A stretch of DNA of 45,366 nt, counting the filler, from Jimgerdemannia flammicorona (Eukaryota): the NCBI GenBank assembly GCA_003990765.1. It is 2 parts of 2 records of this genome, joined end to end, with 100 filler letters (N's around TTAATTAATTAA, not from the genome) between each part and the next. Parts side by side here need not be neighbours in the genome. Positions count along the whole stretch, not along the records: positions 22,738 to 45,366 come from RBNJ01001237.1; 1 more part is not named here. One strand, 5' to 3'. Shown here one piece after another: positions 18,670 to 44,600 of this stretch. Made by a program: the position numbers and the translations under genes. Positions within the stretch are counted from its first letter, which is position 1; the number at the start of each line of letters is the position of its first letter. A model generated the notes under the pieces. The model saw nothing but the letters and a program-made list of their open reading frames with translations, was not told where the DNA came from and searched no databases.

Positions 18670-20709
18670 ATCCTTTAGTTCATGCTATTATATATCATGA
18701 TTATATATATATATAAGTTACTTATAAAAATATAATTAACTTAATGCCCCATGTAAATTTAAATGTAAAACAAACTAAGGGATATGTTCCTCACGCGAAG
18801 TCAGGTTTCCAATTTAGAGTTTTTGGCATGCGTCAAAATACTGACACAACTTTAACCTGATCTCGGAGGTCACTCGGGTAATTGTCAAACCTCGTGGTTG
18901 AGTGCATAAATACATAAATACAGCAATTTCTGGTATACTAGAGGGTCTAAGCCAGCATCGCGCGGGATTAAGACATTAACAGCGCTGATGATGGTTGTAC
19001 GATATCATTTGGGATTGTTTGAGTTGGATGTATGGCTGGATAAGTGATTCCAGTCAACAAAAGAATATGAGAGAGGAGTAACAGTCTATTTATAATATCT
19101 CCCCCTCAATGCTGGGTTAAATCACGGGACCCAAAGGCACGACTCAGGATTTCCACAGTATACCTGCATTATCATCCTCCTCCTCATTGGCTGTACCCAC
19201 GACCCTCTTGTCCATCCAGTCGCGAACAAACAGGAAATCACCCATCTCACGCAGTACCGAGGATGCTGGATTGCCCCGCGCCCATTGATCCAGGAGATCA
19301 TCCACCGAAACCACCCCTTCGGCAAGAGGCTCAAGAAGCTATCCTGTCCGTGACCAGCACATCCTTTTCGAGCATAACCCCGGCGCCCACCACATATCTT
19401 GAGATCACACTATCGACCAAGACGCAGGAGCTCGCCTCGTCCGCTACAAAAGCACCGAAACCAGCATTAGAATGAACTCCCTAACTCGTCACCGTCGACC
19501 GACGCTCAGGAGGTAGCCCCGCTTCCCTGGCGTGTCCAACAAGCCGGAACCTCAACACCTGAACGAATACAACCACAACCATTAACGGATCCCGAGGGGT
19601 TATAGACAGCTAAACAAAAGGTAGTGGGTCGTAGTGCAGTATGAGAGCGAGATCACACGATGTACCTTTGAAGCATTGTATTCGGAATAAACATCGAGTT
19701 GGTACATACATGCATACGTAACAAGGTGTTTGCAATATACATAAGTCACTGGAATGAAAATAAGAGACCACGTGCTGATACAATTTTGGTTTCCCTAGGA
19801 TTAGATAAAGGACATGCATAAACGGATGCTTTTATTAATTTCAAGCCGAGGACCTCCTCGGAACCTAACTCATGGTAGGTTAGGTAGCTGTCGCGATCTG
19901 CATAAGTCAAGGTGTAACTAGACTTCGATTGGGCTTGGGTTGTTATACAATTAAGAATAATGCTCTGCTTGATTTTCGTGTTGGGACCTGTATGCGGTTG
20001 AGGTTACTGTTATATGATGTACCTTTTGTCGTTCATTCACTGGGATAATCCTGTCAGTCGCTGATCTTCATCTCTCCGATGAAGTACTACTGCTATCTTC
20101 ATCTGTACTTCTTTACTTCCAACATCTCCTCATGCAGGGACTTTGCAAAATAATGAAGCTTAAATTCAAACTCTCCAAACAAACAAAACTTTGTCGAGAT
20201 CCCTCCGCCGAGATCCCTCCCGCTACTGAGATCCCCTTTTGCCTGAAGTGGAACGGTTTAAAGCCCTTGACTATTGTACAAAACTTGATACCTCATGACT
20301 GTCACAGTAAACCTGAATGATGAGCATTCCGAAGCATTCCGATTTCAAATCCGGAACATTGTACCCTGCACGACTTTGGGGATCGCAACTTTTATATTAG
20401 ATAAGCGCTTTCAATCTAAACAATCAAGAATTTGCGCAAACTAATTGCACTAACAATTTGCTAATCACTTGCTCGCTGTTTTCTATTTTGTGGTGATGGT
20501 TGCTAAACGACGGTCGCGAAATTTTCCGCCTTTGTTCAGATGAAAACCGCCACTAGCGTTCGGAGGTCACAGACTCCCAAGTTCATTACAGTTTTAAGAT
20601 AATCAGCGATCCGGTTTCCAACCACCATCCCGTTTCGTGGTATGTCGATCGCCGGTTTAAATGCCCGTCCGAAGAAACCTCGACCCACCCAGGCAAACCA
20701 AGATAAGCC

Positions 20710-21798
20710 ATGAACTCCACCACGGATCAATTAACCCCACCGATCCCGCCCGAGGACATAGCCACCATTACCGGCGCATGGTCTGCCCTCGCCTTCAGTA
20801 TCCTCAGCTGTGTCATCATTGGGAGAAAAGCCAGGGTGGACTTCAGCGCTATCCGAGCCTGTTGCTTTCTCGCAGAGATCCTGACTGGTGTCGGCCTGGC
20901 CAGTGCCAACGTAATGCGGCTTTCATCCCAGATCCCTGAACCTATCTTCAACATCCTACTGTGTCTCCTACAAATTCTATTCATAGACCTCATGATCGCC
21001 GCAACATTCCACCTGGGCGTCAAGCTTAATGGGACCAAGAAACACCGCTTCAATGCACTCTACAAAATGACCATTGTGTGGGGTGTGCTGATGAACGTAG
21101 GGGCTGGTGTGAGCCTCGTTTTGGGGCAATATTTGCACCTGTTTGATGCAGGGAATAATGCATTCTTAGCGGCACGATGCTCAGGACTTGTTGCCTCGGT
21201 GTGCGCGTTCTTGTATGCATTTTATCCGGTTCTCCAAGTGAACGATATGAAGGATATGTCTTCTGTGCCTTCGAGTGTTGTACCGGTGGCAATTTGGTGA
21301 GGCCTATTGGAATCCGACGCGCACTGATATTTCACATGACCGCATGAAATGCACTAAACTTGGCCTGTTTCCTTTTTATGACATTGATAGGTACCTATCT
21401 GGGTTCGCCCTTGTTATCACACTGACTGTCATTACCTATTCAATCTCTGCCGTATATCCTCGGCAACAATACAGAGCAGTTGATATTGGCACAGCCACCA
21501 GCTCGGTTTTCATTAGGTATTATATCTATCTAACATGTCCGTTCACCAGAACATCACTTCCTTTCACTCACACGTCCAACCTCAATACCACAGATCGGCC
21601 TTTCTAGTCTTCTACTCCTTCCAGGCCCCAAGTGCGGCCATCATGGCTATCCGTCAACAGTTCTTCACAGACCCATTGATCTCCAGCGGTGACATCGAAA
21701 AGCAAATAAGAGCAGTGAACGTGCTCTCGGACAAACAAGTGCTGTCAACGGAGTCGACAATGCCGAAGGAATATAGTTTGCGTAATTGCCCGCAATGA
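20710..21798 (+). CDS. Intact 3-exon orphan seven-transmembrane protein (305 aa), GPCR-like topology
   Basis: Exons 20710-21296, 21391-21516 and 21594-21798 are joined by GT-AG introns in matching phase (TG|G = W, AG|A = R), total 918 nt. Seven hydrophobic stretches, N-terminal NST sequon, polar C-terminal tail. Confidence 0.85.
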
Positions 21799-22637: not shown

Positions 22638-22737
22638 NNNNNNNNNNNNNNNNNNNNNNNNNNNNNNNNNNNNNNNNNNNNTTAATTAATTAANNNNNNN
22701 NNNNNNNNNNNNNNNNNNNNNNNNNNNNNNNNNNNNN
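22638..22737. other. Assembly spacer: 44 N + TTAATTAATTAA + 44 N
   Basis: A six-frame-stop linker embedded in Ns, 100 bp in total. Confidence 0.97.
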
Positions 22738-22984: not shown

Positions 22985-23082
22985 GTTATATGGTTACTAT
23001 TTGTGTCTTTTTTTAAAAATTATTTGATATATAATTCTATTACAAAATACTTCCTTTTTTTACTTAAATAAAGCTCAGCTTA

Positions 23083-23485
23083 TGTAATATTTTACCAAAG
23101 TTTATTTCTTTTCTTTGTCTTTCTTCAATATTCTACAACCTTCCAGTACTTTCCAAATGCTTAGAAATCCTTTCTTGGTACTGAGCATCCTCTAGTACTT
23201 ATTTAGCTAGTCACTGAACATCCTGGAAACTTGTAGAACTTTATTTATCATCATTTGTCATCTTTGCCAAGAACTTTTCTCTTGGCATTTTCCTTTGATT
23301 TCTCAGATCCTTCCAGATCCTTCTTTCAGATCTTGTATTAATATCCCCTTTGTTCTCATGAATAAAGTCTCAGAATATTTTCTCTCAGAAATCCTTCAAG
23401 AATACTTAAATTCTTTGTATCTCTTTGAGCTACTTAGGACTACCAGAATTAGTTGCTTCCTCATTTAGAAACTAGAACCATTATA
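23083..23485 (+). repeat. 5' LTR
   Basis: TGTAA...TTATA (decayed TTACA), AATAAA at ~23361, about 93% identical to the 3' LTR by manual count. Confidence 0.97.
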
Positions 23486-23487
23486 CT

Positions 23488-23500
23488 TGGTAGCAGCAGT
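23488..23500 (+). promoter_or_regulatory. PBS, initiator tRNA-Met type (TGGTAGCAGCAGT)
   Basis: Lies 2 nt after the 5' LTR. TGGTAGC is complementary to the ...GCUACCA end of eukaryotic tRNA-iMet. Confidence 0.8.
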
Positions 23501-24597
23501 TAAGTTACACCTAGCCTTATTAAGACACCTCTCAAGATATCAGTCTCAACACTATGGAGGACAATAGGTGGAACCCTTCATATAGTACCTACGGTCCAGG
23601 CAATGTCTCATACAATCAGTATAATCAGCAAGAAGAAGAGGAACAGCAAAACCCTACTCAGTCGAATGGGGCCATTGAGAGTCTTTTGCAGACTACACTA
23701 GCTCAGATTGCTCAACTTCAAGAATGCATAGAAAGAAAGGAAAGCAAGGCCTCCACTTACACCTCCACATCTCTACCAACATCAATATATCTGACAGCAG
23801 TCACTATCAAGCCTCAGAAGCCCGATACCTTTGATGGTCAAAGAGGAGGACTGTCTACCAATGCCTGGCTTTTCCAATTAGAGCAATATAAAGAACTGAT
23901 CAATTTGGAAAAAGCAACACTAGTCCAATTTGCCGCCACACTCTCCTGAGGGAATGCTGCAATCTGGTGGCAAAATTATATCCAGAATACCAGATTCTCT
24001 GGTCAAATCAAGACTTGGGGCAAATTCTCTGATGCTATTTAAGGCCAATTCAAACCAGTCAACAGCACCAAGGCCATGTGAGACTGTCTGGCAAATGTCA
24101 AACAACTCAAGTCTATGTAAGCATACAATGTACAATTCCTGTCAATCCTGCTAGAATTACCACATGTTACTGAAGATGAGAAGGTCAACAAGTACATCTG
24201 AGGCCTGAAAGGTCAAACCCAAGTTTGTATCGAACTAGAAGAACCCAAGGACCTAGATATAGCAATGAAAATTGCTGATAGGTTTAATGTCATTACCTAT
24301 GGTCACTGCTTTGAACAGAAGAGACCACCTTTTAACAACAACAACAACCACCACAGAAGGGAGGAACCCAAAGTCAGAACTGTGGGATCTGCCTCCATGG
24401 ACCTAGACACCATTGACAAGAGCAAGAAAGGCAAGCTTACACCCAAGGAAAAGGAGCATCTCAAGAAGGCTAGAGCCTACTTCTTTTACCATCAGCCTGG
24501 TCACATTGCAACCAAATGTCCCAAGAAAACTGCCAAACCAAAGAGGATCCTGGTCCTGTCTAAAGACACTCAAGGTCAACCAGTTGAACAAGAAGTT

Positions 24598-25007
24598 GTA
24601 CTCAATTTCATGTGAGTTAACCCTAAGGCCCAGATCCCTCAAGCACAGTCAGAAGGAGCCATTGGTTTAGACCTTCAAGCAGTACAACAAGTTACTATCC
24701 CTGCACATGAAAGAAGGCTCATTCTAACTGGCCTTTCAATCGAAATCCCCAAAGAATATTATGCAAGAATTGCACCAAGATCTGGCCTCAGTTTTAAGCA
24801 CTCATTGGATGTTGGTGCTGGAGTCATTGACTCTGACTTCTGAGATGAAATGCAAGTCCTACTAGTTAACCATAAGAATCAACCATACACTGTCAATGAA
24901 GGAGACAGAATTGCACAGCTCATTCTGGAGTGAGCCACCCTACCAGTCATCAAAGAAGTCACCAAGCTGTCTTCCACCAAGCGAGATCAGAAAGGTTTGG
25001 CAGCACT
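24598..25007 (+). pseudogene. dut: dUTPase domain between gag zinc knuckle and protease
   Basis: In frame with gag: EGAIGLDL, IAPRSGLS (24778-24786 = RSG), AGVIDSDF*, GDRIAQL, KRDQKG(F)GST with a 1-nt deletion. Confidence 0.93.
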
Positions 25008-28000
25008 GATAAAGTTGCAAGCATAGCTAAGAACTGAGCCAATTAAATGCTCATTTTCAAAGGCCTAGTCAAGGAACAAGAGCTAGATATTCTCATAGAC
25101 AGTAGAGCTGTTGGGAACTTCATCAACAAGAACCTCATCGCCAAGCTCAAGATTCTCACCAAACTAGCCAGCAAGAATGGTGGAGTTGTCACTACAGATG
25201 GTACCATCTTACCAATTGACTCAATTGCTGCTAAACTTCCCCTTAAGATCCAGAAGTACTGAGAATGTTTAGATTTCGAGGTAGCACCACTAGGAGACCA
25301 TGACCTGATCCTAGGCAAACTCTGGCTTACATGGCACAACCCTCAGATTGATTGGACCAAGAATGAAGTCACCTTGATTCAGGATGGAGCCAACATTACC
25401 ATCAAGTCAGACAAGACTCAGACGAGAACCCCAATTGCAACCCTTTCAGCAATTCAGTTCAAGAAGGCCCTCAAGAAAGCTACCTGTGCCTTTGTGGTAC
25501 TGATCTGATCAAAGAAAGAAGACAAGAAGCTATTGATTAGTGAAAGCATCAAGTTACTGCTGAACAAGTATAAGGATGTCTTCCCAGACAAACTACCTGG
25601 TCTACCACCTTCAAGAGACCATGACCATGAAATTAAGTTGGTACCAGATGCAGCTATACCTAAGAAGAAAATGTACTGCATGTCTCTACTTAAAATTGAA
25701 GCAGTCAAGAAGGAACTCAATGAACTCATTGAGTGAGGAGCCATTCAGCCAAGCAAGTCACCCTTTGGTTCCCCAGTCCTATTTGTCAAGAAAAAGGATG
25801 ATACTTTGCGAATGTGCATAGACTACCATACACTCAACAAGATCATAGTCAAGAACCATTATCTGCTACCACTCATAGATCAAATCTTTGATGCCCTCAA
25901 GAATGCCAAGTACTTCACCAAGATTGATCTCACCTCTGGATATCACCAAATTCGAATCAAGCCAGAAGACATACCCAAGACTGCCTTCATGACACCCTTT
26001 GGACTCTATGAATTTCTAGTCATGGCCTTTGGTCTCACCAATACATCAGCAATCTTTCAAGACCTCATGCAAACCATCTTCAAGGACCAGCTCTATATCT
26101 TTGTACTTGTATACATTGATGACATCCTGATCTTCAGTGGTACTGAAGAAGAACACCTCAAGCACATTGAACAAGTCCTCAAGATCCTCTGCAAGAACAA
26201 GCTCTATGCAAAGCTCAAGAAATGTAAATTTTTCAAGGATCAAGTCAAATACCTTGGACACATTGTATCAGCCAAAGGAATTCAAGTAGACCCAAGGAAA
26301 ATACAAGCCATTGAACAGTGGTCTGTATCAGCAAACCTCACTGAACTCAGGTCCTTCCTTGGTCTGGCTGGATACTACTGTCAATTTGTCAAGAACTTCT
26401 CTAGTATTGCAGAATCTTTGACAAATCTCCTGTGAAAGGAACCCAACTCTGACCTCTATGTCCCCTACATCTGGAATGCCTTCTGTCAACAAGCTTTTCA
26501 AGAACTCAAGAACTACCTGACTCATGTACCTGTCCTTAGAAACATGGACCCAAACTTGAAGTTCATGGTTACTACAGATACATCTAACTTTGTCATTGGT
26601 GCAGTCATTTTTCAAGATGATGGTCAAGAACACTGACCTATTACCTTTGAGTCAAGAAAATTGTCCCCAGCAGAACAAAAGCTGGCTACTCACGAAAAGG
26701 AACTCCTGGCAATCATGCATGCCCTCAAGACCTGGTGATACTATCTAGAAGGAGTTGAGTTTGATATGATCACCAATCACAGGTTCCTTCAGTATATCAA
26801 CACTCAACCAACCCTTTCTTACCAACAAGCCAAATGGAGCCAACTACTTCAGACCTTTACCCCAAACATCATCTACAAGCCTGGCAAAACTCTAGTTGTA
26901 CCAGATGCACTTTCAAGAAAACCTGACCTCGCCATGATTTTACAAGTCACTGTGGCACCTGAATTCCTCAACTAGATCAAGAAGGTATATGAACAAGACT
27001 CTCTGGTTCTACAAAGGAATACCAAGGAATTCAAGGAAAAGTACACTATCAAGGATAACCTCATATACTATTAAGACAAAGTATATATTCCTGCCAACCC
27101 CGAACTACAGTACAAGATTCTTCATGAACATCATAACTCTCCACTAGCTGGTTACCTTAGAACTGAGAAGGTTATCAAGAATATCCAATGAGACTACTAC
27201 TGGCCAAATATGCTCAAGAAAATCAAGAAGTATGTCCAAAGCTGCAATCTCTGCCAAAGAAACAAGTCAAGCAATCAAGTACCTGCCAGTCTTCTACAAC
27301 CCTTGTCAATTCTGATCAAGAAGTTCAAACAAGTCACAATGGACTTCATTGTACAACTCCCATAAACCAAAACAGGCTATGATGCCTTTTTTGTGTTTGT
27401 GGACCATCTCACCAAGATTACAATCACCAAGTCAACCACAACCAATGCCACTGCCTCAGAAATTGCAAGAATCTTCTTCAAGACTGTCTTCTACCATTAT
27501 GGACTTCTCTGAGTAATTATCAGTGACCATGACCCCAAGTTCACAAGTTACTTCTGGTAAGTACTCTTTAAGACCCTTGAAACCCAAATTGCTATATCCA
27601 CTGCCTTCCATCCTCAAACTGATAGACAGATAGAGCAAATGAACAGAACACTTGAACAAATGCTCAGAAACTATGTGTCTTATGAGCAAGATAATTGGGA
27701 CTACTATCTGACCTATGCTGAGTTTGCCTACAATAATGTCAACCAATCATCAACTGGCCTTTCTCCATTTCAGCTACTTCATAGTCAAAACCCTAAGACC
27801 TCTATGAGCCTAGTCCAATTCTAGCAATCCAGTCACACACAAGTCCCCACAGCCCAGAACCTTATCGACAAAATGGACTCTCTTCTCAAGATCACCACTA
27901 TAAACCTGCAAAAGGCTCAGCAATATCAAGCTAAGTATATAGATAAGAAGTGACGAGATGTCATATATAACATTGGTGATATGGTTCTACTCAAAGCTGA

Positions 28001-28238
28001 CAATATCAAGACTCAATCTCAAGTCAACTGTCAGTTAGCCAAATTCCAGCCCAAGTACCTTGGACCCTTCGAGATCACTGAGCAAGTCTCTATCTGGTCT
28101 TACTATCTCAACTTGCCAACAACCATGCATATATATCCAGTATTCCATATGTCACAACTCAAGACCTGGAACCAGTCACCCCCATACCCTGGCCGAATTC
28201 TGACACTATCAGCACCAGTTATAGTTGAAGACCACATT

Positions 28239-28390
28239 GAGTATGAAGTTGAGAAAATCTTAGACAAGTAAGTCTGATACCGTCGCACAGAATACATAGT
28301 CAAGTAGATGGGTTACCCTAAATATGATGCTACCTGGGAACCTGCCACCAATCTCAAGAACTCCCAAGATCTCATCCAAGAGTTTGAGCA
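28239..28390 (+). other. Chromodomain at the integrase C-terminus
   Basis: EYEVEKILDK*V*YRRTEYIVK*MGYPKYDATWEPATNLKNSQDLIQEFE. Confidence 0.92.
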
Positions 28391-28706
28391 AAAAGGAACT
28401 CATTGACTGCCCATGAGATTCTCTCCTTGGATAGTAGATGACCTACTATGCTGATCAGGCACATTACACATTGAGGCTCTCTAAGGGATACAGCATCAGA
28501 AGCAGGAGATATAGGAGAACTCTATAAATCCTGCAACCAATGAGGTTTGAACCAGTTCTCATCTGATCAAGATGATACTTTGGCCCTCACCTTATACAAG
28601 GATGGCCAATCCTTGCCAATGAGTTGGTATATTTAATTTGAAGTTTCTTTTAGTCTTATTGTTTATTATGTGTAACTTTGAGAATTCAACAAGGACATTG
28701 ATTCTT

Positions 28707-28719
28707 AAGGAGGGGGAGA
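28707..28719 (+). promoter_or_regulatory. Polypurine tract
   Basis: AAGGAGGGGGAGA immediately before the 3' LTR. Confidence 0.93.
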
Positions 28720-29122
28720 TGTAATATTTTAGTGTAGTTTATTTCTTTTCTTTGTCTTTCTTCAATATTCTACAATTTTCTGGTACTTTCCGAATGCTTA
28801 GAAATCCTTTCTTAGTACCGAGCATCCTCTAGTACTTATTTAGCTAGTCACTGAACATCCTGGAAACTTGTAGAACTTTATTTGTCATTATTTGTCATCT
28901 TTGCTGAGAACTTTCCTCTTGGCATTTTCCTTTGATTTCTCAGATCCTTCTGGATCCTTCTTTCAGATCTTGTATAAATATCCCCTTTGTTCTCATGAAT
29001 AAAGTCTCAGAATATTTTCTCTCAGAAATCTTTTGAGAACACTTGAATTCTTCGTATCTCTTTGAGCTACTTAGAACTATCAGAATTAGTCACTTCCTCA
29101 TTTAGAAACTAGAACCGTTATA
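28720..29122 (+). repeat. 3' LTR
   Basis: Same length as and colinear with the 5' LTR, followed by the TSD. Confidence 0.97.
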
Positions 29123-29127
29123 GCTTA

Positions 29128-29543
29128 TTTTTTTCAGAAATCATTCAAGACTACTTAAACATATAAGTATCTCTTTGAGCTACTTTAGACTCTCTAGAAA
29201 CTTCTAGATTTAGCTACTTTCTCTTAAAGAAACTAGAACTAGATATTTTATATAGATATAGTTATTATCTAGTTATTATCTGTATAATTATAAAGTATGT
29301 AGTAAGACTAATTATAGAAGTTATGACCTCTCAATTCTTTGGAGAATAGTATATCATCAAAGTATAACATATCTGCTAGAAAAGCATTTTTACTAAAAAT
29401 AATATATATAAATATTGGGTGTTTAGATATTTATACAAATTGATAGTACATATAAATAACTATATTATATTTGTGATATATTACTGTTGTACTATAATGT
29501 TTACTCATCATACTACAATGTAGCCAATGACAACTATTATCAC
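29128..29543 (+). repeat. Remainder of an older LTR interrupted by the chromovirus
   Basis: 29128-29240 resembles the chromovirus LTR 3' third. 29244-29543 is homologous to 11890-12177. Confidence 0.7.
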
Positions 29544-29629
29544 AATGGGCCTAGTTGTGTAATAGTAGATGGTAACAGAAAACCACATTGAAACATATTC
29601 TACAAATAATTCAAGAATATCAATAGGAG

Positions 29630-32600
29630 GCCTACTTATGATTTACAGAGCAGTTCCATAGATCCAAAACATTCTGTCCTTGAGCAAAGCTGTCAGGTCT
29701 CTCTGATTTATCCTCTCCCCTAACCGAATAGACCTTCCTGCAGATGTGATCATAAATGGACCACATGCTGGCAGTATTTTGGTGCTGGCAGAAGAGAGAG
29801 TCATGGTCTCCCATGAATGAGTGGAAAGAGGCGTCGGTCCCTTCGAACGGACATCGTTTGCGCCAAAGTGCTGGCCCCACCATGCCAATAATGAGGGTGT
29901 CAGTCACTGATCTGAAATGTGATACCAATATCTTCTAGCGTATATTGGTGACAAGGGAGGTGCTGATCAAGGAAGGTGGCGAGTTTAATAGATGAGAGCA
30001 TCAATCTAGTTCACTTTGCAAAGGCACTGAGAATTTCACTGCCAACATCCTGAACAATAAGGATGCCAAGAAAATGAAATAAAGTACCATATGGTCCTCA
30101 TTCGCAGGCAACAGCCTACTTGCTTCGTGATGACTCATTTTTCTCGAAAGGTCTGTACAATTTCAACAAGAGATAGAATGTTTCACATGCGGGTCAGCAA
30201 AGGTGTCTTTTTCTAACTGTAAAGCATTCCACACTCAACACTCGCACTGCCCACCACATCTCTCCTTTATGCATAAAAGCGCATTTTTTGTATATCAATA
30301 AAGTGCCGCTCTTGAGAAAAACCAAATATTACAACAGCTATTAGTTCTGTCGGCGATCAATATTTCTTTTTGAGTAGGATCGTTTAAATCGGTTTTACAG
30401 ACTGGAAGATTCTTTGTTTTCCTTCCAAAGGAGCATATAAAATATGTGCAAAGGGCAATTATGGCAAATGACAATTATATCCCAATGACGCAACGCGTGA
30501 ACTGAGCGATGCTTGCCACTGACCACCAGGTAATCGCACTCCAGAGAACCAGCGTCCCATTCATATAACCAAGATAACATTTCAAGCGGACGCCATTAAT
30601 AAAATGGAATGAGGCCAATTCCTCAAACATGTCGGGCAAAGCCAGAACACGATAACTATCCATTGGTAGAGCTTTATTAAGAAAATATGCCACGTTCGGA
30701 TATCTTGAATCGCGCAGCGTCTGAACCTTGTTAGAAGGTTTCCCATACCATGGCAGAAAGGGTCTGTGTAATGTGAAGTAACCAAACAGCCGAGTGGATT
30801 TTATTATTAGATTTCCTGCGGGAAATTGTCACACGACTTATTGCTCCAGAAAACCCCTTATATAAATAGAATGGAAGAGGTCCATATAGGCCGAGTATAG
30901 GCAAACAGAGTCGCAGTTTCATTACAAAATTACATTGTCTCACACCTTCTCTAAGTGCGACGTGAATCTTGTATTCGTCGTCTCTTTTCAACAATAACTT
31001 GCCATCGCAGAGTTGCGACAGGTTCCCTCTTATGGTGTCAATGCTGGAATCGACCATTTCCGACGATGAACCAGTCAAATGAACAAAATATCGTACGAAC
31101 GCGAGCACCGATTCCGTGATTGGTCCCGTGAAAAGAGAACACATATACAGTAGCATGCGCTGCTGCGTTGGAAGCTTGTCGATTGTTGGTCGGAAACGGA
31201 ATTCGAATTTTCTACTTTCATATGAGCCATCTGTTAGCATTGCGTCGAAACGATCACGAACGATTTCTTTAAGTGATACATTTTGATGCTGTGGTTTGGT
31301 GGTGGCATGGCCAAGGAACTCCAAACATAGTGGATGCCCGTCTACGAGCCTGACGAGTTCGTGTAGCAACTGCGTCGCATTCGCTTCATTCTTCACCCTC
31401 TGCTTCACTTGAGCGTCAAGATTTCGAATGAACAATTCGACGCCACTCTCAATGTCGGAATCCGTCGGACCGTCGGAATCTGTAAAACCGTCGAGGTGCA
31501 TCTCTTCCTCCTCTGCTGTCCATTTCAAATGTTGATTCGATGTTGCGAGAATTCTTCCGAAACCAGTCTACCAACATTACGGCGCCCTCATCGCCTCTGA
31601 CTTGTGCACGCTTCAAGTTATCAGCTTGATCGAGGACCAGCAAACTTGTCCTTTGCGACTTAAATCTGTCGAAGATGGCCCGTTCCACCATGTGAAAGTC
31701 ATTGCCAAAATCTTCCTTGAACATAACCTGACTCAGGCCTTGGAGATATTTGATAACCGATATCTCGCGCGAAGGATCGAATTGCCAAGCGAAGATCCCA
31801 CCGGGGAAGAGATGCGCCATCCGCCTGACTGCCTTCTCAGCCAACGCCGTTTTTCCCTGACCAGCAATACCTTCAATGATGTACATGGGACAGGTCTGTG
31901 TCCCTCTCTCCGCCATACGCCTCAAAACGCGGGTTATCTCGATAAGCTCCTCCTTGCGTCCGCAAAAAAATCGCGTGAAAGAAATGTCTTGAAGGTTGTT
32001 GCGGGGCACACGGGATTCGATTGTGGGCCTTCCCTCCACGCACTTGAACGCGCCATCCTCTTCCCGAAACGTGGATGAGTAGAGCATAATGGCACCGGGG
32101 AAGTAGTCGTGTTGTCTGATGTCTTTTGGGTCTTTCATGGAGGCGCGCGCCTCCAACATCGCTGCTTCGACCGTGCAGCCACCGGAAAGGCACAGGTAGA
32201 ATTTGCATTCGAACTTGCGGGCAAGGTCGTCTGGCAGGGGAGAGTATGAGCCAATGGTGTATAGAACGCCGTGCTCAGCCAGGTCTCGGGCGACACTGCG
32301 AGTATTGCAGGCAGAGAGAAATGCCAGTCGTAGGTTCTTGGCGATGGTGTCGAGGCGCAACGCGTCAACGTCAACGAAGTGGGGTTTTCCTGTGTCATGA
32401 TCTTCAAAGATGAGGGCCCTCACACCGCCTTTTTGCGAGTCGCAGTGTCCCATGAAATGAAGCACCGTGGCCATCTCAGGCTTGCCACTGAGCAACTCGT
32501 ACATTTGGTCGACGGTCGGCGGGAACACACGCTGCATCAATACCGCTCGATTGTTTTTCTCATACGCATCACATAATGTTTGAAATTGATCGCTCAGATG

Positions 32601-33137
32601 TAGATCTGGAAATTGGTTTGCGTTGGGATCGCTCAGCGGAATGATGGGGTCTGGTACGACGGCGACGATACGCAGTGGAAGTCGCTGAAGTTCTGACAGC
32701 TGAGGAATCTTCCGTCTGTGAACACGTGTGAATATGCACTTGTTGGTCAAATACCCACTGGTTTTCAGCTCCGCATTATCGGACAGAGGTGTATTGTTGC
32801 CCCAAGCGTACTCCCAGGGAATGATATCGAGGCCGTGGTCGCCGTTGAGATCGAGCAGGATCCGACGCTTGGAGAGAGGCTGTAACATATCCTGCAACAG
32901 ACGCCAGGCGTAGCTGGACTCGTTTTCTGAAAAGAGGGCCCAGAACAACCTTTTGCTGTATTTTCTGAGATCCGCAGAGTTGGGTTTCAAGTTGAAGACG
33001 TCGACGGTGATAGACCGACCTTCGTGGATTTCTTGAAGGTTGAAAGAATGGCTTTCAACGAGCTGAGCCAGATAATCATCAGCGGCAGAAACCTTGACAA
33101 GGACTCTGGTTTCTTTGGAATTGGCGCTGTTGGTATC
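29630..33137 (-). pseudogene. CHAT (caspase-like) protease fused to an NB-ARC/STAND NTPase (NLR-like), frameshifted
   Basis: IPWEY, VLHFMGH (catalytic His, ~32445-32459), FLSAC (catalytic Cys 32307-32309), FCGRKEEL, Walker A GIAGQGKT (31848-31871), Walker B LLVLDQAD. A frameshift at ~31550 leads into ILATS (sensor-1), DGHPL and YKIH (MHD-like). The C-terminal part below ~30930 is broken by several shifts and stops. Acceptor at 33138; the first exon is unresolved. Confidence 0.85.
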
Positions 33138-33573
33138 CTTTGACAAGGATATTATCATATTTGTGAGAGTGTGTGTGTGTAGGTGTGTCTTCTCTCTGTT
33201 CACTCTGAGCGTTCATGTGGAGGTGAATATACCCGGATTCCTGGGGTTCGTATCACAAACCGGGTTTGACCCGAAAAGGACAGACCCGGCGAATCGGTTT
33301 AACAACCTTCAAACTATGGGTAAGACAAAGGGAACCGCCTATTCGATTTATCCCTTTCATCATTTCCTGTACCTCCCAACATATCGACACACCAACATGC
33401 CACCGCCATGGCCGTACCAATCTTTGGGGTCCCTCATGATCATTTCCGCCCACCCTCATCAGCACGGCCTTTATCGGTATTTAAGATAATCGTTCAACCC
33501 CTAACCTCGACCATCATCCAAAATATTTCTTCAAGCCAACAAAACCTACGATCCCCCGAGATACGACATGACC

Positions 33574-34751
33574 TCACTGCAGCTTCTTCTCCGCCAGTAT
33601 CTTCTTCCGCTCCTGCAAGACCACGAAATCCATGTAGGTCAAAAATTTCGAGGAACCGATGTGTGTGTATGTGTGCGTGTATGTTGGGGTAATATGATGC
33701 CAGGAACAGGTTCGATAAACGGGAGGAAGAGCCGGAAAAATGAGCAAAAGGACAAGGAAATCTCACATAAGCAACGTCGGCGAGCGCCCAATCTAGAACC
33801 CAGTTGCTGCTAGGGCTTAGGCCAGGGAACAGAGGAGGAGAGTGGGAGAATCGATAGTGAGAAAATCATGCGAAGAATGTCGATGCCATTTATGAGCTCA
33901 TGTCTACCAAATGTATTATTACTCCTCTTCCGTCGCTTGGCTGCAATTTTGCAATTAGCGACTTCGCACCCTCCCACCTCCCTGTTTACTGTATTCTACC
34001 TGTCGGGTTCGCTTATGCCGAACTGACCATTCGCCACGCAATGTCGATATTCCGCACCGACATCAACCCATCCTTCCCCATAAACCTACTATATGTGGCG
34101 GACCGCAAGAGCGACCTGTGCAAGTCAGTCCCGACGAAATAATATCCATTCTGGAGACCTGCAATTATCAACCAGACATGATCAAAAACAGGCACGCATC
34201 AGACACCGCACTCGAGTCCAACCCCACACGGTGAATTCCCCCAACTTCTCCCGTACCCACCTTGATCACCATTCCTCGGCCGTCCGCGGCGTGTTGGCAC
34301 CCTCGATCCTCGCCGTGATCTCGGGCTTCGCCTTATTCTGCGGGCAAAAGACGCGGAGATCCGATTTATGAGTCAAATAATTATGAGGGGAAATCAACAA
34401 GTGAGGTGGGAAGCTCACCTCGGTCCCCCAAACAGAGGAGAGGATGCCGCCGGGGAAGTAGACGTGGATATTGATGCCGTACAAGCTCGTTAAGGAGGCC
34501 ATCGGCAAGACGTAGGGTGGTGGATAAAATTCGTTGTGAAGTGAGGCGGAATAGTGACGACGAATATAACGAGAGCGAGTGCATGTGTATATCGCGTTGT
34601 GGGGACCTCCCACGAAATCGCCGCCTTTACAACCAAACCCAACACCTTTCTCCTCCTGAGACCATAAAGACCCTACCACGGATCATGATGCCTAGCACGG
34701 AGGACACGAAGATAATTTTGCCCAGGGTGCCAGCATACGACTGGTGGATTC
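33574..34751 (-). pseudogene. TSC10: 3-ketodihydrosphingosine reductase (TSC10/KDSR-like SDR), C-terminal half, degenerate
   Basis: Exon pieces GKIIFVSSVLGIM (~34684-34722), SLHNEF, LYGINIHVYFPGGILS...TE|NKAKPEITARIEGANTPRTAEE, GLQNGYYFVGTDL..SLLR, and a last exon YMDFVVLQERKKILAEKKLQ* (KKxx ER signal; stop 33574-33576). The YxxxK motif and the Rossmann N-terminus are not seen. Confidence 0.75.
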
Positions 34752-35799
34752 CTGTTGGAGAAAGGGGGCGCGCAAGGAAACATGTAAACTAGAAACCGTC
34801 ATACAATAATCGGCCACTGGAGCACATGTATTTTCTAAAAACTGCCGAGTACCACCAAACCAGAGATGGGAATCTTCAGCGTGCACTCCGCTGTGGAGAA
34901 AAAGGCAGCAATACATCGCGGGGAGATATAAGCCATTCCTCCGAAATTCGTTTATTTTGTGGCTGATTGCAGTTGTGTGAGTACGCTGAGAAATTGATCA
35001 CACTAAGAAATTGATAATAAAGGGGTGTGTTCGTGGCCCGAAATTGTTGGGTCTAAGAGGACGTGTTTACTAATGATTTACTCTTGGGGCCACCAGGGGA
35101 GCCTGGAAAGCAACCTCTCGTGTGTAGATTCCTTGAAATCGGATCCTTGCGAATGCATGCCCTTTTTCGAGATTTTCAAGACTGTAAGCATATCCAATGG
35201 GTAATCCTACCATGTGGTGTAGCTATAGCCCGAAATACCGTTGCGCTAGCGTGCCTTGGATTTAGGACATGTCAATTTTCGGGCACGTGCCCTTACAAGT
35301 GCAGGGGAAGTTCCGCCAAAAAAAAATTTTAGAGGCCCGATAAATGGCCTCGGAAATTGCCTTTCAACCCAATAGCTCACCATAGAGCTAGTCTGAAAAT
35401 CCCTGAAAATTATTTTTATGTTTATTGATATCTCTTTCATCAAGTACAATGATAATTTATATTATATATAGCTACTCTCTATCATAAAATACTTTCTTGT
35501 GAGCACACTTCATTGAAATCTGAGTGAAATCTGAGTGAAGACAGCTTTTTCTGTTTGATCAATCCAATCAATAATTACACTGTCAATGTCCAACATTCTC
35601 TTCAACATACAAACATCCAATATTCACCTGAACATATCCAATATTCTCCTCAATATATCAAACATATTTTTCTACCCAATTTCTAAATCTATCATCCTCT
35701 CTTACTAAATTACCCTATTGCTGGTTCACCCTCTATTCTTTGCTCTCTATTGCCAAACCCATTCATTATTATTGTCACTATTCATTGTCATCCCAAATT

Positions 35800-36699: not shown

Positions 36700-39550
36700 C
36701 CAACTTAAAAATAGATACATATATATTGAATATATCAATCAGATAACTTATAAAGATTTTGTACTTTGGTAAGAAGATAGAAGAGCTAACATATATATAA
36801 AAAATATCTAATTTGAGTAGGCTGGGCTAGCTTCTATACTCAATCAACTGATCAAAAAACATTTCAATTTGATATTTCTATAACTAATAATAAACTAGTT
36901 TTCAGAGTACAAAATCAGACAATATATTAAATATTTATTAAAAAGATACTAACAGAGATATAGAATCTTACTTTAAATGGAAAAGTTAGTAGACTAAAAC
37001 TTTTTAGACTTGATACAGATTTCTACAATATATTAATTGAATGCTATCTTTGTCAAAGTCAATCTATATTACCAAAATAGCTATATGAAGATTTCTAATA
37101 ACTTTCTGATAGTAGTAATTAATACATTTGCTCAGAATATAATCAATATCAGCAATATCAATCTATTGATATTATTGATAAATCTAGAATATCAATTATT
37201 AGTAAACAAACTTTAATTGACTTTATTATAATAACTTTTAGCTATAGAAATAATAAATATCTGATAATATATAATGAAATTATATCTCAATATCACAAAG
37301 GATGATGTCATCAAGCTGATATCATTAGATTCAAATTACCAGCAAGGCTATATACTAGAAAAATCAAGAATATTAGTAAGATCATAATGATTTTGCACTA
37401 ATTTCAATCCTTTTCAGTTAGTGATATTATAGTAGTCATACTAGTTTATATACTAGTTTAGTGTATACTCACAATAACATCACTATTAATATATCTCAGA
37501 AATAGACTAAGGATGCTAAAAATAGCATGAGACTAAATTAGTCTTTAGCTACATTGATACATAAACTAAAATAGATTATGATATTATAGAAACTAGAGTA
37601 TATCAAAATTAGCTACTGACATCATCAGCTCTCTGATGTCAGGAACTAGTAAGATCTTTAAGGCCAGCAACTTCATGGGCTAAACTAGACCATGACAAGC
37701 TATGAAATCATAGTTATCATATACTAAAATAGTTTGTTTAGTAAATAAATAAAAAGCTAACAAATTAGCTCTGGGAAATAATCAACCAAATAATTACTAT
37801 ACAAACTCAAAGATATCCCCCAAAAAACAAAACTAAACATAAACAAATTATGCCCTCTTCTTCTGAATATATCTATCAAGTACTCTGGAATGCTGTCTTT
37901 TACCATCAACACCAGTTCTCCTAAGAATATATTAATATAGATACTTATAATCTTGAGCAGTATCTATAAGCTGCTGAAAAAGTTATATCTAGAATACAAC
38001 AGATCATCAGATACTTTATAACATTGAGAAACTATTAGGCAGATAGACTCATTGTTGAATATTTCAGAGATACTAGATGAATATAATGTATCTATACTTA
38101 AATAGTATATTTTACTCTATATCTATCAATTGTTCAGGAAAATATCCTTTGCTATTAGTGACATATAAGAGATAGCTCCTGTCGAAATTGGAAGTCTCAA
38201 TGATATGTATACAATACAAGTAGAGTTAGATCTTATAAATGACTTTAATCTTTAAGACCATTATAATGATAATACTTGACTATATGAGAATGAGGTATTC
38301 AACTCTATCATCAGTCTCTTTCAAGGACCAATTACACAAGTCTCCATTCTTGTCAACACCTGGCCACCTAGCTTTTCTGTTCTCTCAAATATTAGACTAG
38401 TCTCAGACTGGTCTACTACATCATCCAAGATTACAAGATCAGAAGCTGGCTTAGAAGAGCTAACCTCTTCTTTATCTAGAATAAAGTCAGATAAAAGACC
38501 TCCAACCCCTTATACAGAAGTTCATTACTATTATATAATGTAATGAAATATGTACTACACCATAAGTCTCAGTCGAAATCTAGAACAATTACCTCATAGC
38601 TAGCATATGAAAATGATATCATTAAATAGCATCATTATAACTTTATAATGACACCATTATGGTATAATATTTACATCATTTCTAGCAAATTTCTCTCTTA
38701 TATTTCTTAGCCAATAGTTAGTCAATATTAAGAGACCTTCAAAATATATAAATACTACTAGAGAAATAACTTAAGAACTTTCAAAATTTACTGAATACAG
38801 AATAAAAGAATAATTAAGACTTAAGTCTATAATATATAGATCAGTCTCAAAATAATCTCCAATAAAAATACTATATCTAAAATTAGATATCCTGAACTCT
38901 ATAAATACTTGAACTCTGAAGAATCTAAATATAATTCTCTGAACCAGACTATATCTAAAAGGATATACTAAAGGACTTAGACTTTAAAGAATTAAAGTCT
39001 ATAATTGCTAAATTATTATCCAAGTCTACCAGAAGGAGACTAGATTAATTAAAAGTACAACAGACAGTACTTGGGAATTAAAACAGCCACTTTCTCAAGC
39101 TACAGATATCTGACATAAGTGCATTTAAGTTATTAATATCAAGAATCATTAACTTAAATAGTATAACTACTATAATAGTGAAGATAAACTATTACAATTG
39201 ATAGCAGTGGAATCTATGAGTCAATCTGGCATAAGACAAATAAAGGATTGTTAAACAGCCTACAAGCTATTACTGAAAATATCCTTTAAGAAGTGACTAG
39301 ATACTCTGGACCCTCAAACAAGAGTAAAACAGAATATAAGAACTATTGTTGACTGAAAAAGCCAATATAATAAATAACAACAAGAACTTATTGAACATTT
39401 TGCTCAAAATTTATATTCAGAATTCTGTGAACTACATCAAGTATTAAGAAAGGATACAGATCTTCAGAAAAAGTTTTACAGACTTATATATAAGACAATA
39501 TACATGTCTTCCATAAGTACCTCTTGGGTTATACAACTTTTGAAAAGTAA
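36700..39550 (+). mobile_element. Heavily decayed Gypsy debris (integrase end, extra ORF from ~37850, possible LTR and gag fragments)
   Basis: Very AT/TpA-rich coding-like frames: integrase-tail-like FSVSDIIVV (~37410) and an ORF start MPSSSEYIYQVLWNAVFY at ~37850. Confidence 0.45.
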
Positions 39551-39586
39551 CAACAACATTATTTTTGGAGAAAAGAGACTAGCAAC

Positions 39587-41611
39587 ATGGTAACTGACAG
39601 GCAATCTGAGGTGTATACTGAGCAGGGCAGCCTGAGTGTGTTCAACTAGCAGTATGTGGGGAGAGGTACTGGCCTGGGGGGAGGTATGAGGGGGCTGCTG
39701 GCAGGTGGATGCAGAAGGGAAGGAGGCAGTAGTAGAGGACAGAGATCTGGGAGGGCGAGCTTTGCTGAGACAGTGAAGGAGAGAGGACAGATATTGGGGC
39801 TGAAGAGTTGGTTGAGGAAAGGCAAGGAAACGGAGAAGGCTACATATATGGGGGAGTAGTCCTTGGCAGAGGAGGCATGTGGAGCTAGAGGTATAGTGGC
39901 TGGGGGGGGTGTGACAGCTGATGGAGATGGGACTGCTAATCTGGAAAAAAATCCAGATATGACTGTGGATGGTGCAGCTGAGTGACTGGGGCTTGGGAGA
40001 TAAGGAGATTTGACAGATGGTGTGATAGGCCTGGCAGTGGCACCATTACTCAAGAAATCAATCTCGGTATTCACAGTAATACTGTGCTTCCAGGGTCTAG
40101 CAGTAATGATGAAAATGGTACTGAGGCTTATTGTTAAGCAGATGGCTGGAGTGGCATCCATAAAGTTTTTGAAGGGACTAGAGGGAGTGGAGGTGGGCTT
40201 TGAGGAGGCTGAGCTTTTGGAGGAAGCATTGAAGGTTGGATTGATAGTTGGGGAGGTGTGTGTTCTGATGGCACGATGCCTGAAATGGGATCCAAGAGTG
40301 GTCCAACTGCTGGTGAAAGGGGTGCCTACAGTGATAGCAATAGAGACAAGAAGGAGAGTTAAGGAGGTCATGGCAGAGTATGGCGAGGTGGTGGATATTG
40401 GATTCAGAGTCTGGGAGGGGATCTTGCTCAGGACTGGGGATATGGATGTGAGGATTTGGCTGACAGAGAAGGAGGCCACTGGGAAGGCAAGAGACTGGCC
40501 TTCCAGTATGGTCTGAGGGGTGATTGTATGCAAGGTAACGAGGGTGAAGGGGAGTGAGGAAGAGTAAGAGGACCTATTGGAAGTGCTGGAAGAGTTGAGT
40601 GGTGCAGTAGAATGGTGGGCAAAGGCTTGGAGGGCCTTTGAGGAGGCAACACACTTGGAGGTAGTGGATGGGAAGCAGATTCGAGTGAGCAAGGAGCAGT
40701 AGGAATGAGATCAGAGATGTAAGAGATAGAGGAAATTGCTGGCAAAGATGAAGGGTGGGCCTCTGAAGGATACGAGTGAGATGGTGGACACAGGGGGGGC
40801 CAAAGCAAGTGTCTGGGCAGGTGAGGGGAGTGGGAGTGCTGGGAAGGGGACAGGCAAGAACAGGGAGGTGACTGGCAAGGACCCATATGCGGATGGTATA
40901 CTGGAGGTTTGGAATGAGACATGGGAGGACTCCCCTACTCCTACTCTCCTTATCAGGTGGGGCCCAGCTTCCCAAAGCAGAGTAGTGGAGGATGTGCTAA
41001 TGTGGGGGACCCAGCAAGTACAATTTGGAGTTCTGGAGGTGGTGCAAGGGGGACAAGTGGTGGTAGTCAGTGAGGAGGAACTAGTGGATGTCTCAGAGGA
41101 GTGGGATGAGGCTGCGAGTGCTGGGGCTGACACCACAATGCTGGATGGTGGGAGGCTGGTGACCCCTGGAGGAAAGGAGGTGGGGAACCTACTTTGGATG
41201 TGCAGGATGATGAACAACCTGGTGGCCAAGGAGCTGGGAGAGGTGGATTTGAGGGTAATGAGCGACAAGCATTGGGCAAGGATTCTGCAGAAGGAGGGGG
41301 TGGTGATGGCATTGAAGGTGGAAATTCTTGTGGTGTATCTGGAGGAGGAGGGCTATGAGGTAGATAAGGAGTGGGAAGTGGAGATGGCAGGAGTCATGGG
41401 AGAGAGGGCTGAATACTGCTGGACCAAGCATCATGGACTGCAGCTCTGGCAGGAAGCCTGCCTAAAGTACCAAGAGGAATTCAAGGAGAAGGCAGATGGA
41501 GAGATGAATGAGCTGTTGGCTGGACTGGAGGCTCAGAGGGCTGAAGAGGAGGCAGTGACTGCAGAACATAATCTGGACTTGGCACAGAAGGAGATGAACA
41601 TAGAGCAGTAG
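39587..41611 (+). pseudogene. LINE ORF1 (RRM-like region, acidic helical C-terminus)
   Basis: ORF pieces 39656, 40010 and 40736 share one frame with ATG 39587 and are separated only by TAG/TGA. RRM-like VQLLVKGVP...VMAEYGEVVDI...RTGD. Confidence 0.75.
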
Positions 41612-41641
41612 AGAAAGCATGATAATACACCATTCTTCACT

Positions 41642-44600
41642 ATGAATAGTACAATCAACATTTTTTCTTTGAATGTGAATGGGTTATGGGGTACTTATTG
41701 ACATAAGAACATTTTTACTTGGCTGAAGGGATTGGAGGCTGATCTCTTTCTCCTGCAGGATGTCAGGTGTAAGGATGACTTGGATAGACTGGAATGGATG
41801 AAGAAGTGGAGAGGTGAGGCAGTCTGGAAGGACAAGGTTGGGATTCTGGTGTGGAAAGGCAGAGGGGAGATAAGGGATATGCAGAGCTGGGGGGATAGAT
41901 TGGTCTGGGGAGAGTGGATATACACAGGTTGAGAGCCAGTCACAGTGGGCTTCTGCTACTACCCTGCAGTATGGGGTGAGCATGTGAATTGGGTGAAGGG
42001 CCTACAGGAGAGTGGAATTCTTATGGAGGTTGGGGTGGATATGCTCAGTGGGGACTTCAATATGGTCCAAGATGTATTGAGGGATAGAACTGATAGAGGA
42101 TGAGGTGCTGAGGGTCGGAGTGGAGGACTGGCAGCATGGGAGGAAGTGGAAAGACTGAGTGCTCTGGTGGATGTGGGTAGAGAATGTTGAGGGGATAGGA
42201 GGGTGTACATGCACTGGGCTGGGGGCCTGGGGATGAGAATTGATTGGATACTGACAGCCAGTTGCTGGGGCTTGGATGTTTGGAAGTCGCTGGAGGTGGA
42301 ATGGTGTTCTTGGTCAGATCATTGGGGGCTTTTAGGGCAGGGGCATTTTGGGGGGAGTGGGGATGAGCCTGGACATTGGTGGCTCAATTCCTCCTTACTA
42401 GATAATAAGATCTGGTGGGATGAGTAGACTGAAGACATTCAACTACGAGTGGAGTGCTAGAGGCAGAAAGGTGCCCCAGTTGATATTCAGTGGATGAGGA
42501 TGAAGGAGATGGCCAGGACCTTCTGGAGTGAGGCTGGTAAGGAGGCTGGGAAACAGAGGAGGCGGCAGGTGCAGTGGGCATCTAGTAGACTATCTAGATT
42601 CTTGGAGGACTGGGTGAGACTGGTGATGTTGGAGGGGGAGGAGGACTGGAGATTGATGATGGCAAGAATGGAGGTGGTTGAACTACAACAGGTGCTGCGG
42701 AATGAGGAAGAGGCAAGGGTCCAGGGTCTGGTGGTGTGGCTTCACTGGCAGAGGTTGGAGGAAGGAGAGCAGCCCTCAAAGTTTCTCTCAAGAGCCCTTT
42801 AGGCAAGAAGGATGCAACAAAGGCGGGAGGGGGTGCTTAATACTGATAGTATATTGGTACATGGTGTACAAGACATTCTTGGATCATTAAAGGAGCAGTG
42901 GAGTGGATTGTGGAGTGAGGAGGAGGGTGGGGCAGATACTGAGGACATTGACCAAGCATTGGAGGATTGGTACCCTACATGAGCAGATGGGCTGGGTGAC
43001 TTAGTACTGCTGGTGCAAGAGGAGGAGATCCACTAGGTTCTTGCTGTGACAACCTTGGGTACAGTGCCTGGGGAGGATGGTCTGCCCTGGGACTTCTGGA
43101 AAAAGATGGTAGGAGTTCCTGGGGTACTGGGAGAGATGATAGCACTGTGTGATTGGATTCTACAGACAGGGAGATGGGTGGGAGAACAGGATCTGGAGCT
43201 GGTGACATTGCTTTATAAGAACAAAGGAAGGCAAGAGGACTGGAAGAACTGGAGGCCGATTATGCTACTGGATATGGACAGAAAGTTGGTTACCAAGGTG
43301 GTAGTCACAAGGTTGCAAAAGGTGGCCCAGCAGGTCTTAGGTGATGAGCAGAGGGGCTTTGGAGAGGCCAGCTCATCAGGGATGGCACAGCATGAGTTCA
43401 TGGAGTGATTGAAGGGGCGTGAGCCAGTGGACTGGATGGGCATCTGGTCTTTCTGGACCAGGAGAAGGCTTATGACCAAGTGCAATGGGTCTGACTGACA
43501 AAAGTATTGGATAGGATTGGGGTCCCGCACCAGTTCAGGACAGCCATGGTCAGCCTACTGGAAGGAAGTAGGGCTGCACTCATGTGTAATGGATACAGAG
43601 GGGTAGCATTTCCCCTGGGTAGGGGGGTGCCCCAGGGGGACCCACTGTCCCCCATTTTGTATGCTCTCTCTCTGGAGCCCTTTATGGACAGAATCAGATA
43701 GAAGATAGTGGGGCTCTCTATCTTTGGCATTGGGTGAAAAGTAGGGGTATTGCAGATAACATAGTGGTCAGCCTGGGATCAATTGTGGATGTTGAGAAGT
43801 TCAAGGAAACAGTGAAGTGGTATGAGGTGAACTCTGGGGCTAGGCTTAATTGGCATAAGTGTGAAACAATAGTGTTAGGCAATGGTCTGGTGGGAGGGGA
43901 GATTATTGGTACCATTGTCCCTGCTGGTGAGACAGTACAGTACTTGGGTATTTATCTATCAGTATATGAGTCAGTTCTGCTCAGACTTTGGTGGGAGCAG
44001 TGGGTTGGCATCTGGGAGGAGGCCCTGTGGAGTTGGGGGGGCCGCCAATTGTCTCTGGCAGGATGCATTTCAATTCTGAACGTCTACTGGCTGCTGAAGT
44101 TGTGGTATCTGGCTTATCATCTGGACTTCCTGGCTTGGGTGGTGAAGCAATTGATGAAGCTGGCCAAGGGGTGGATCTGGGCTGGAAGGCAGAGTCAGAT
44201 CAGCTAGGAGGTCTTGTCCTTACTGGTGGCAAGTGGGGGACTTGGGCTGGTTGACTTTCCTAGGAGGCTGTACTGCTTGAGAGCGTGGTGGCTGAAGAGA
44301 GCAGTGGAGTTGAGAGGGAGTGGTTGGGTTCCCCTACTGCAGAAAGTCTGAGAGATGAGATCCTCTCTAAGGGGTTCAACTGGTAATCTCCTAGCACTTG
44401 TGGGCCTTCAGAACATCAAACAATTGTGATACAAAGGCTTCTGGTGAGGAGTGGCAGAGGGGGTGCACCACATTGGAATTAGGTGGCAGGGAAATGAAGG
44501 GGAGGCAGCTTGGGACCCAGCAATGTGGAGATGGGACCAAGTGTTACTGAGCAGTATTCCCTTAATTGAGTTTGATATTAGTGATGGGATCAAATGCCAA

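Follow-up and report, generated by a model that had tools for sequence, protein, structure and literature searches.

Does this locus in the genome of Jimgerdemannia flammicorona encode a working NLR-like immune sensor? The first-pass annotation had read positions 29630..33137 of the window (the whole stretch of DNA analysed, 45,366 nucleotides with filler) as a single exon in which a CHAT protease is followed directly by an NB-ARC-type module and then by a possibly atypical sensor region. An open frame of 569 residues, on the minus strand, starts with an ATG at 33158 and ends at 31449 (31449..33158). It comprises an N-terminal extension, CHAT, the first half of a nucleotide-binding domain (STAND1) and about 35 out-of-register residues before the stop; residues 1-533 are 84% identical to G000:C6297. 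The CHAT caspase-like peptidase domain (32112..32891, minus strand) was matched by Pfam PF12770 over residues 90-349 (E = 2.3e-15, 57.3 bits against a cut-off of 24). Both members of the dyad described in the first reading are present and in frame, with the His in HFMGH at 32459-32445 and the Cys in LSAC, which starts at 32318 and has its Cys codon at 32309-32307. The dyad is almost invariant among the paralogue loci (His in 40 of 41, Cys in 41 of 42). By profile and by dyad, the domain is a CHAT peptidase with predicted proteolytic activity.

The nucleotide-binding module has fared less well. Its in-frame part (31556..31967, minus strand) contains GR near 31960, the Walker A motif GIAGQGKT at 31871-31848 and the Walker B motif LLVLDQAD at 31643-31620. 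ILATS (31552), GHPL (31339) and IH (30973-30959) are read in a different frame from CHAT, behind a 29-nt gap. They belong to the rest of exon 1 (30883..31552, minus strand), which holds a helical and winged-helix region, YKIH and the first residues of a GTPase-like domain and is 97-99% identical in DNA to paralogue L021. The single-exon arrangement of CHAT with NB-ARC motifs is thus correct as far as Walker B and breaks down behind it. No complete NBD-HD1-WHD is found in one frame, since a frameshift lies behind Walker B, and the tripartite layout of effector, NOD and repeats is missing from this copy, in which the repeat exons are deleted. A profile search placed CHAT above its cut-off and all three STAND models below theirs (AAA_16, 24.9 against 32.6; NACHT, 21.1 against 26.7; AAA_22, 20 against 27).

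The locus is one of a large family. Searches of the genome gave 91 matches for CHAT-STAND1 (from 81 scored of 437 candidates), 181 for the domain that follows STAND1 (from 150 of 249) and 128 for a second STAND domain, STAND2 (from 113 of 301), so the family has at least 81 loci. The layout of intact members is CHAT, STAND1, GTPase-like domain, STAND2, SEL1 and ANK, often followed by LRR exons. Among 32 loci taken with longer flanks, eight show the unbroken CHAT-to-ANK layout under a strict pattern (open exon 1, exon 2, STAND2-SEL1-ANK), and a further three (L024, L029 and L035) were judged unbroken by eye; the rest of the 32 run off their contigs, have decayed or are differently arranged. NB-ARC, Sel1 and Ank were confirmed by Pfam in L022 and L024, with the STAND2 of L022 scoring 43.8 bits for NB-ARC against a cut-off of 23.5. 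STAND1 of the paralogues has the motif order, scores under the cut-off and is partly degenerate. Intact paralogues therefore have the effector-NOD-repeats layout (CHAT, STAND, SEL1, ANK), and their oligomerisation and any role in cell death are predicted only. Selection is purifying throughout, with dN/dS of 0.21-0.44 in all nine domains, across two subfamilies. The NLR-like identity first proposed is upheld for the family and has to be withdrawn for this copy, a twice-deleted pseudogene. The C-termini of intact paralogues, which the first-pass annotation proposed to define, consist of SEL1, ANK and often LRR; the same paralogues also have the GTPase-like domain and a further STAND.

The C-terminal parts are not always the same. 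In L094, L095 and L097 CHAT-STAND1 is joined to a different NB-ARC with DUF7779, TPR, ANK and LRR; in L031 CHAT-STAND1 and the GTPase-like domain are followed by a protein kinase in place of STAND2; and the public relatives P0002 and P0003 run from CHAT-STAND1 straight into ANK. Most likely the CHAT-STAND core has been grafted onto varied C-terminal parts by intron-mediated shuffling.

The domain between the two STANDs, of about 160 residues, is alpha/beta in our own model (pLDDT 75; a first model, at pLDDT 66, was poorer). The top eight rows of its language-model (ESM) neighbours are P-loop GTPases at 0.90-0.91, and the Atlas model of the public protein P0057 gave its best TM score, 0.63, to a G-domain cluster. 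In structural comparison of our own model the highest Z, 6.2, went to IF3-C, and the GTPases, at 4.4-5.8, were tied with unrelated folds. A Pfam search of the domain returned no GTPase match, sequence profiles found no relative in the PDB under E = 0.28, Foldseek with our models gave nothing at E = 0.001 and P0057, used for a feature search of the Atlas, brought no usable match. Public relatives at E = 0.001 or better number 44, of which the weakest look spurious. The P-loop GxxxxGKS/T is degenerate, reading HVKS in the retrocopy L037 and HGIS in L022, and GKS is kept only in the public P0079, within a longer loop. We regard a 'dead GTPase-like' domain as the likely description.

The two STAND domains are unequal. 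The Walker A, Walker B, sensor-1 and MHD-like motifs have established functional roles, and they were counted with one locus per contig. In STAND2 the Walker B Asp and the sensor-1 Arg are present in 36 of 36 loci each and the MHD-like His in 33 of 34. In STAND1 the Walker A Lys is invariant (42 of 42), whereas 33 of 41 loci have the Asp, 11 of 40 the Arg and 18 of 29 the His. From these counts we infer that regulated switching would fall to STAND2, with STAND1 as a relaxed module that is linked to the protease and probably structural in role. The sensor-1 Arg is likewise missing from P0002-P0004, relatives of which two pass directly from STAND1 to ANK, so relaxation of STAND1 does not require a second STAND.

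A candidate sensor is found behind ANK. On contig C150, 18 exons lie in this region, all exactly 84 nt long and each encoding one LRR-type repeat of 28 residues. The LRR_6 profile scores under its cut-off on the unspliced DNA, and arrays on eight further contigs were recognised from exon patterns or translations. The repeats are near-identical save at a few positions. At position 27 pN/pS is 2.5 (66 exons in six arrays, the pairs being non-independent), and the residue after it, which is split by the intron, may be G, D, R, W, Y, F, H or others. These two we take to be the exposed positions of LxLxxN. The hypervariable LRR face is most likely the putative ligand-binding site.

As predicted from sequence, the family is probably one of NLR-like receptor-proteases acting as immune sensors. 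A non-self ligand would bind the repeat region, most likely at the hypervariable LRR face; STAND2 would then exchange nucleotide and oligomerise; its oligomerisation would cluster the CHAT-STAND1 cassette and switch the protease on; and the activated CHAT would cut an effector, leading to local cell death or defence. No link to a gasdermin emerged. No conserved coding neighbour was found in 36 stretches, many of them cut by contig ends, the flanks being mostly transposons, and a search of the genome with PF04598, which we take to be an animal-based gasdermin model, found nothing. A less likely proposal is that the family's protease is nucleotide-gated and signals in symbiosis or development, sensing a partner or endobacterium and processing a regulator, rather than triggering cell death. 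A pore-forming partner was indeed not found, the kinase of L031 replaces STAND2, and purifying selection acts on the ANK and SEL1 regions, all of which would suit such a role. The large copy number, many pseudogenes, mosaics and hypervariable LRR positions nevertheless fit an arms race, and TIR and membrane-protein genes adjoin the bacterial relatives. We retain the immune receptor-protease as the preferred reading.

What, then, has happened to the copy in the window? Two lesions separate it from intact members. The first is a frameshifting deletion at 31554..31555 (minus strand), where 29 bases are missing relative to all three paralogues aligned (L021, L022 and L023, with the same gap in each comparison). 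A 13-nt GT..AG micro-intron that might have repaired the frame was rejected, as the paralogues carry 29 additional coding bases there. The deletion sits at the edge of a mosaic tract (31555..31808, minus strand), identified from identities in 150-nt windows to ten paralogues. Over this tract the copy is 77% identical to L021, elsewhere its closest relative at 90-99%, and 83-87% identical to L022, L025, L026 and L027; it is therefore a recombinant. The second lesion opens the stretch 29121..30882 (minus strand), which is non-coding and matches DNA normally found behind the last LRR exon. Similarity to the family stops at 30882-30883, and the flank aligns with G000:C1169 over 1808 nt (86% identity) and with C5257 over 93 nt (95%); each match begins at the point of the lesion and, on the other contig, a short way past a terminal LRR exon. 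An internal deletion that would have removed the GTPase-like, STAND2, SEL1, ANK and LRR exons is the simplest reading. Two open reading frames in 30882-29121 (100 and 117 residues) have no Pfam match. The atypical, repeat-free sensor that had been placed at 29630-30880 is thus non-coding 3' flank, present on two other contigs, and the repeats are to be found in the intact paralogues.

The locus is in all likelihood a pseudogene and not a working sensor. It would be a casualty of family turnover by paralogue recombination and birth-and-death, and is itself of value only as evidence of that turnover. There is little probability that it is a functional short form, either a freed CHAT protease or a dominant-negative of CHAT with half an NBD. 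Such a product would draw on the 569 codons still open, the intact dyad and the preponderance of synonymous changes in the CHAT codons against L021 (23, with 16 non-synonymous), and a second subfamily likewise closes exon 1 behind the NBD. Here, however, the frame is broken inside the NBD, ahead of the ILATS strand, and in its 3' part the copy has kept 97-99% identity to L021; the lesions are therefore recent and the open frame requires no selection. It is slightly less probable still that both lesions are assembly artefacts from collapsed paralogues. The assembly is fragmented (35,354 contigs), with many copies 75-90% identical, and the copy is a mosaic, but two separate lesions would be required and the joined sides at both junctions have few bases in common, too few for an overlap-based misjoin.

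The surroundings add a few details. Upstream, 33190..34780 (minus strand) is common to the paralogues and is a probable promoter or 5' region, partly inverted relative to them; blastn matches to L021, L022 and L023 are 77-88% identical, in blocks of mixed orientation. A supposed Zn2Cys6 exon upstream was discarded, the motif being absent upstream in all ten paralogue loci checked. On the other side, outside the gene, lies a decayed Ty3/gypsy-like element (23082..29122, plus strand) with paired LTRs (23082-23485 and 28719-29122) that are 92.6% identical. Reverse transcriptase and chromodomain-like fragments were read in this relic by eye.

That the intact loci are single spliced genes follows in the first place from L037 (contig C3107), an intronless, 5'-truncated copy whose STAND2 carries a stop and a frameshift. 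L037 reads STAND1, middle domain and STAND2 in one frame of 838 residues, and lacks exactly the three GT-AG introns (72, 100-104 and 85 nt) of L024 and L039. The alignment comprised seven paralogues, the other five having noisier gaps. L037 is a processed retrocopy, made from a spliced mRNA. Among public proteins, P0079 and P0057 cross the intron 1 joint, P0053 runs from the middle domain to STAND2 and P0006-P0008 stop at the same exon boundary, so the layout is found in other samples; together with the retrocopy, these proteins establish that STAND1 to STAND2 are spliced into one protein. The contig of L037 ends within the ANK repeats, leaving LRR splicing outside its reach, and the adjacent, phase-matched exons suggest that the LRRs are attached to the gene. 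The least probable alternative of all, that each intact locus is two adjacent genes (a CHAT-STAND1 helper and a STAND2-SEL1-ANK sensor), can point to stops behind exon 1 in the genomic frame and to the rarer AAG as the last acceptor of one subfamily, but L037 and public P0053, P0057 and P0079 read through the joints and L025 lacks an in-frame Met before its STAND2. One sequencing run, RNA by our guess, has contigs on L022 and on LRR-exon joints; the three key joints are absent among the matches listed, and the run carries no weight in the argument.

The exon 1 homologues comprise 12 close relatives (37-52% identity) and then bacterial CHAT-STAND-TPR proteins at about 30%, from Ktedonobacteraceae and Anaerolineae where named. 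Bacterial CHAT-STAND-TPR proteins are also the best full-domain matches of STAND2 outside the family. Chloroflexota account for 33 of the best 34 of 79 genome loci. A longer homologue search gave one bacterial-type protein from 5251 candidates, and a metagenome scan gave 32 loci, two of them short at 42-43% identity and the others at 26-33%. In a tree of 48 rows, a subset of 120 segments collected, fungal STAND1 and STAND2 each group with a Chloroflexota-type clade (support 100/100), and fungal CHAT does so in a quick tree (SH-aLRT 100). The fungal clades are sisters of the Chloroflexota clade, not nested within it, and none of the rows in the trees come from Dikarya, plants or animals. The phylogeny suggested at the outset thus bears out a bacterial affinity and suggests, rather than establishes, a horizontal origin. 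The CHAT-STAND core most likely derives from a Chloroflexota-type conflict gene transferred from bacteria to fungus. The direction is suggested by the narrow eukaryotic range seen and by the repeated STAND acquisitions described, in outline, in PMC8195603; it stays an inferred one because the clades are sisters, Dikarya rows are absent and the CHAT tree is a quick one. STAND1 and STAND2 are not sisters in the best tree, and as their monophyly is not rejected (p-AU 0.13) one transfer with duplication is compatible with the data. Of the best 34 bacterial loci 29 were examined; 14 of these are followed by a TIR-domain gene and 12 by a gene for a small membrane protein, which suggests a candidate conflict operon; one protein query each found neither partner in the fungal genome. 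The bacterial relatives point to a candidate three-gene defence operon, and the family would offer a traceable transfer of an immune protease from bacteria to a fungus.

The Chloroflexota proteins are about 30% identical over 72-78% of exon 1, in the same domain order and with HFMGH and GQGKT in common, but have a single STAND, a TPR sensor and TIR or membrane-protein gene neighbours. In its working the family would resemble fungal CHAT-NLRs, as far as the available text of the reports goes (PMC8851545, PMC10197012, PMC9815663). The CHAT NLR-like or HET-Q2-like proteases outlined there (PMC8851545, PMC10197012) likewise combine CHAT, NOD and repeats in one polypeptide, a proposed receptor-borne protease, and CHAT cutting a gasdermin is summarised as a precedent (PMC8851545). 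Against these outlines, the present family has two STANDs, a GTPase-like spacer, a SEL1, ANK and LRR tail and a non-Dikarya host, and no gasdermin neighbour was found for it. No protein named from Dikarya is among the 41 exon 1 and 83 STAND2 homologues listed. The tandem-NBD NLR WTN1 of wheat, as outlined in bioRxiv 10.1101/2024.08.30.610185, also joins two NB-ARC-type domains and LRRs in one receptor, but with a coiled-coil channel effector and, in that outline, neither protease nor GTPase-like spacer. This likeness is probably convergent because the fungal NBDs group with bacterial proteins, plant sequences being outside the trees. Candidate receptors of the brown alga Ectocarpus (PMC3341825, abstract), ROCO-LRR and NB-ARC-TPR, share one repeat per exon, diversifying selection and rapid birth and death; they differ in having a ROCO GTPase or a single NB-ARC, and CHAT is absent from that abstract.

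Fungal NLRs are described as lacking LRRs (PMC4986451, PMC12881547, available text), and NLRs as absent in 20 Mucoromycotina genomes or proteomes (PMC7928374, available text) and in mucorales and chytrids (PMC4986451, available text). Both statements of absence would have to be revised for a family with two NTPase modules and diversifying LRRs, present at 81 or more loci in a fungus outside the Dikarya. No published description of a CHAT-double-STAND-LRR architecture was found in a search that excluded supplements, and its novelty may depend on the architecture datasets that belong to PMC8851545 and PMC9815663. A tentative picture, which we put forward as a possibility and no more firmly, is a bacterially derived 'inflammasome in one chain' in a fungus of early-diverging lineage. 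An exchangeable Chloroflexota-type CHAT-STAND effector would have entered independent fusions, with a second STAND via a dead GTPase decoy, with an unrelated NB-ARC-TPR, with a kinase and directly with ankyrins. Exon shuffling or alternative splicing of the LRR exon arrays, whose variable residue is split across exon joints, could then give rise to new binding surfaces. If true, these would be true fungal NOD-LRR receptors with a combinatorial repertoire.

The identity of the host agrees with the first reading. Chitin_synth_1 genes are present in the genome, and one contig carries a B12-dependent methionine synthase domain, matched as three pieces. Mucoromycotina are described in the available text of PMC7928374 as having an animal-like B12-dependent methionine synthase beside the B12-independent enzyme encountered in Dikarya. 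Chitin synthase and the B12-dependent enzyme together make a non-Dikarya fungus likely.

The Chloroflexota relatives of the fungal family, in which CHAT and STAND domains precede TPR repeats, lie in a conserved run of three genes (loci L147-L180; for example L150:3352-9005, L154:6001-10982 and L158:6001-11664). The CHAT-STAND-TPR gene is followed by genes for a TIR_2 protein whose C-terminus is rich in Cys, present in 14 of the 29 CHAT-STAND-TPR loci, and for a membrane protein of about 155 amino acids (12 of 29), for which PycTM-like matches were weak only. Comparison of the run with PADLOC gave nothing beyond weak scores. We consider it a candidate bacterial defence operon.

Within Jimgerdemannia flammicorona a second subfamily is represented by L094 (C767), L095 (C2656) and L097 (C8022). 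These loci begin with CHAT and the NBD alone of STAND1, the nucleotide-binding domain behind CHAT, followed by an intron, past which lie exons for an unrelated NB-ARC with DUF7779, TPR, ANK and LRR. The public proteins P0009, P0011 and P0012 end at a boundary matching that of this subfamily.

Other copies have features of their own. At L031 (C33, 2759-4904) protein kinase exons replace STAND2, the second nucleotide-binding domain, behind the CHAT-STAND1-GTPase-like exons. The most divergent CHAT-STAND1 copy, L036 (C135), is basal in trees; it is followed by short exons of unassigned kind, one with a kinase-like stretch by eye. At L032:4787-5365 and L039:749-1222 an acidic repeat of the DDDSI type is expanding within one loop of the GTPase-like exon, and L037 (C3107, 3131-6924) is a 5'-truncated processed retrocopy.

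In the window, an N run (22638-22737) separates contigs C1236 and C1237. ORFs encoding a hydrophobic multi-helix product (20707-21600, plus strand) and a Cys-rich product (12763-13320, minus strand) had no Pfam match. Inspection by eye identified relics of a retroelement with dUTPase and RT fragments (6600-7800, minus), an LTR-bounded Ty3/gypsy-like element with a chromodomain (23082-29122, plus) and a LINE-like element (39500-45366, plus). Elsewhere, past the LRR array of L079 (C5257), fragments of a decayed permease-like gene were identified, also by eye.
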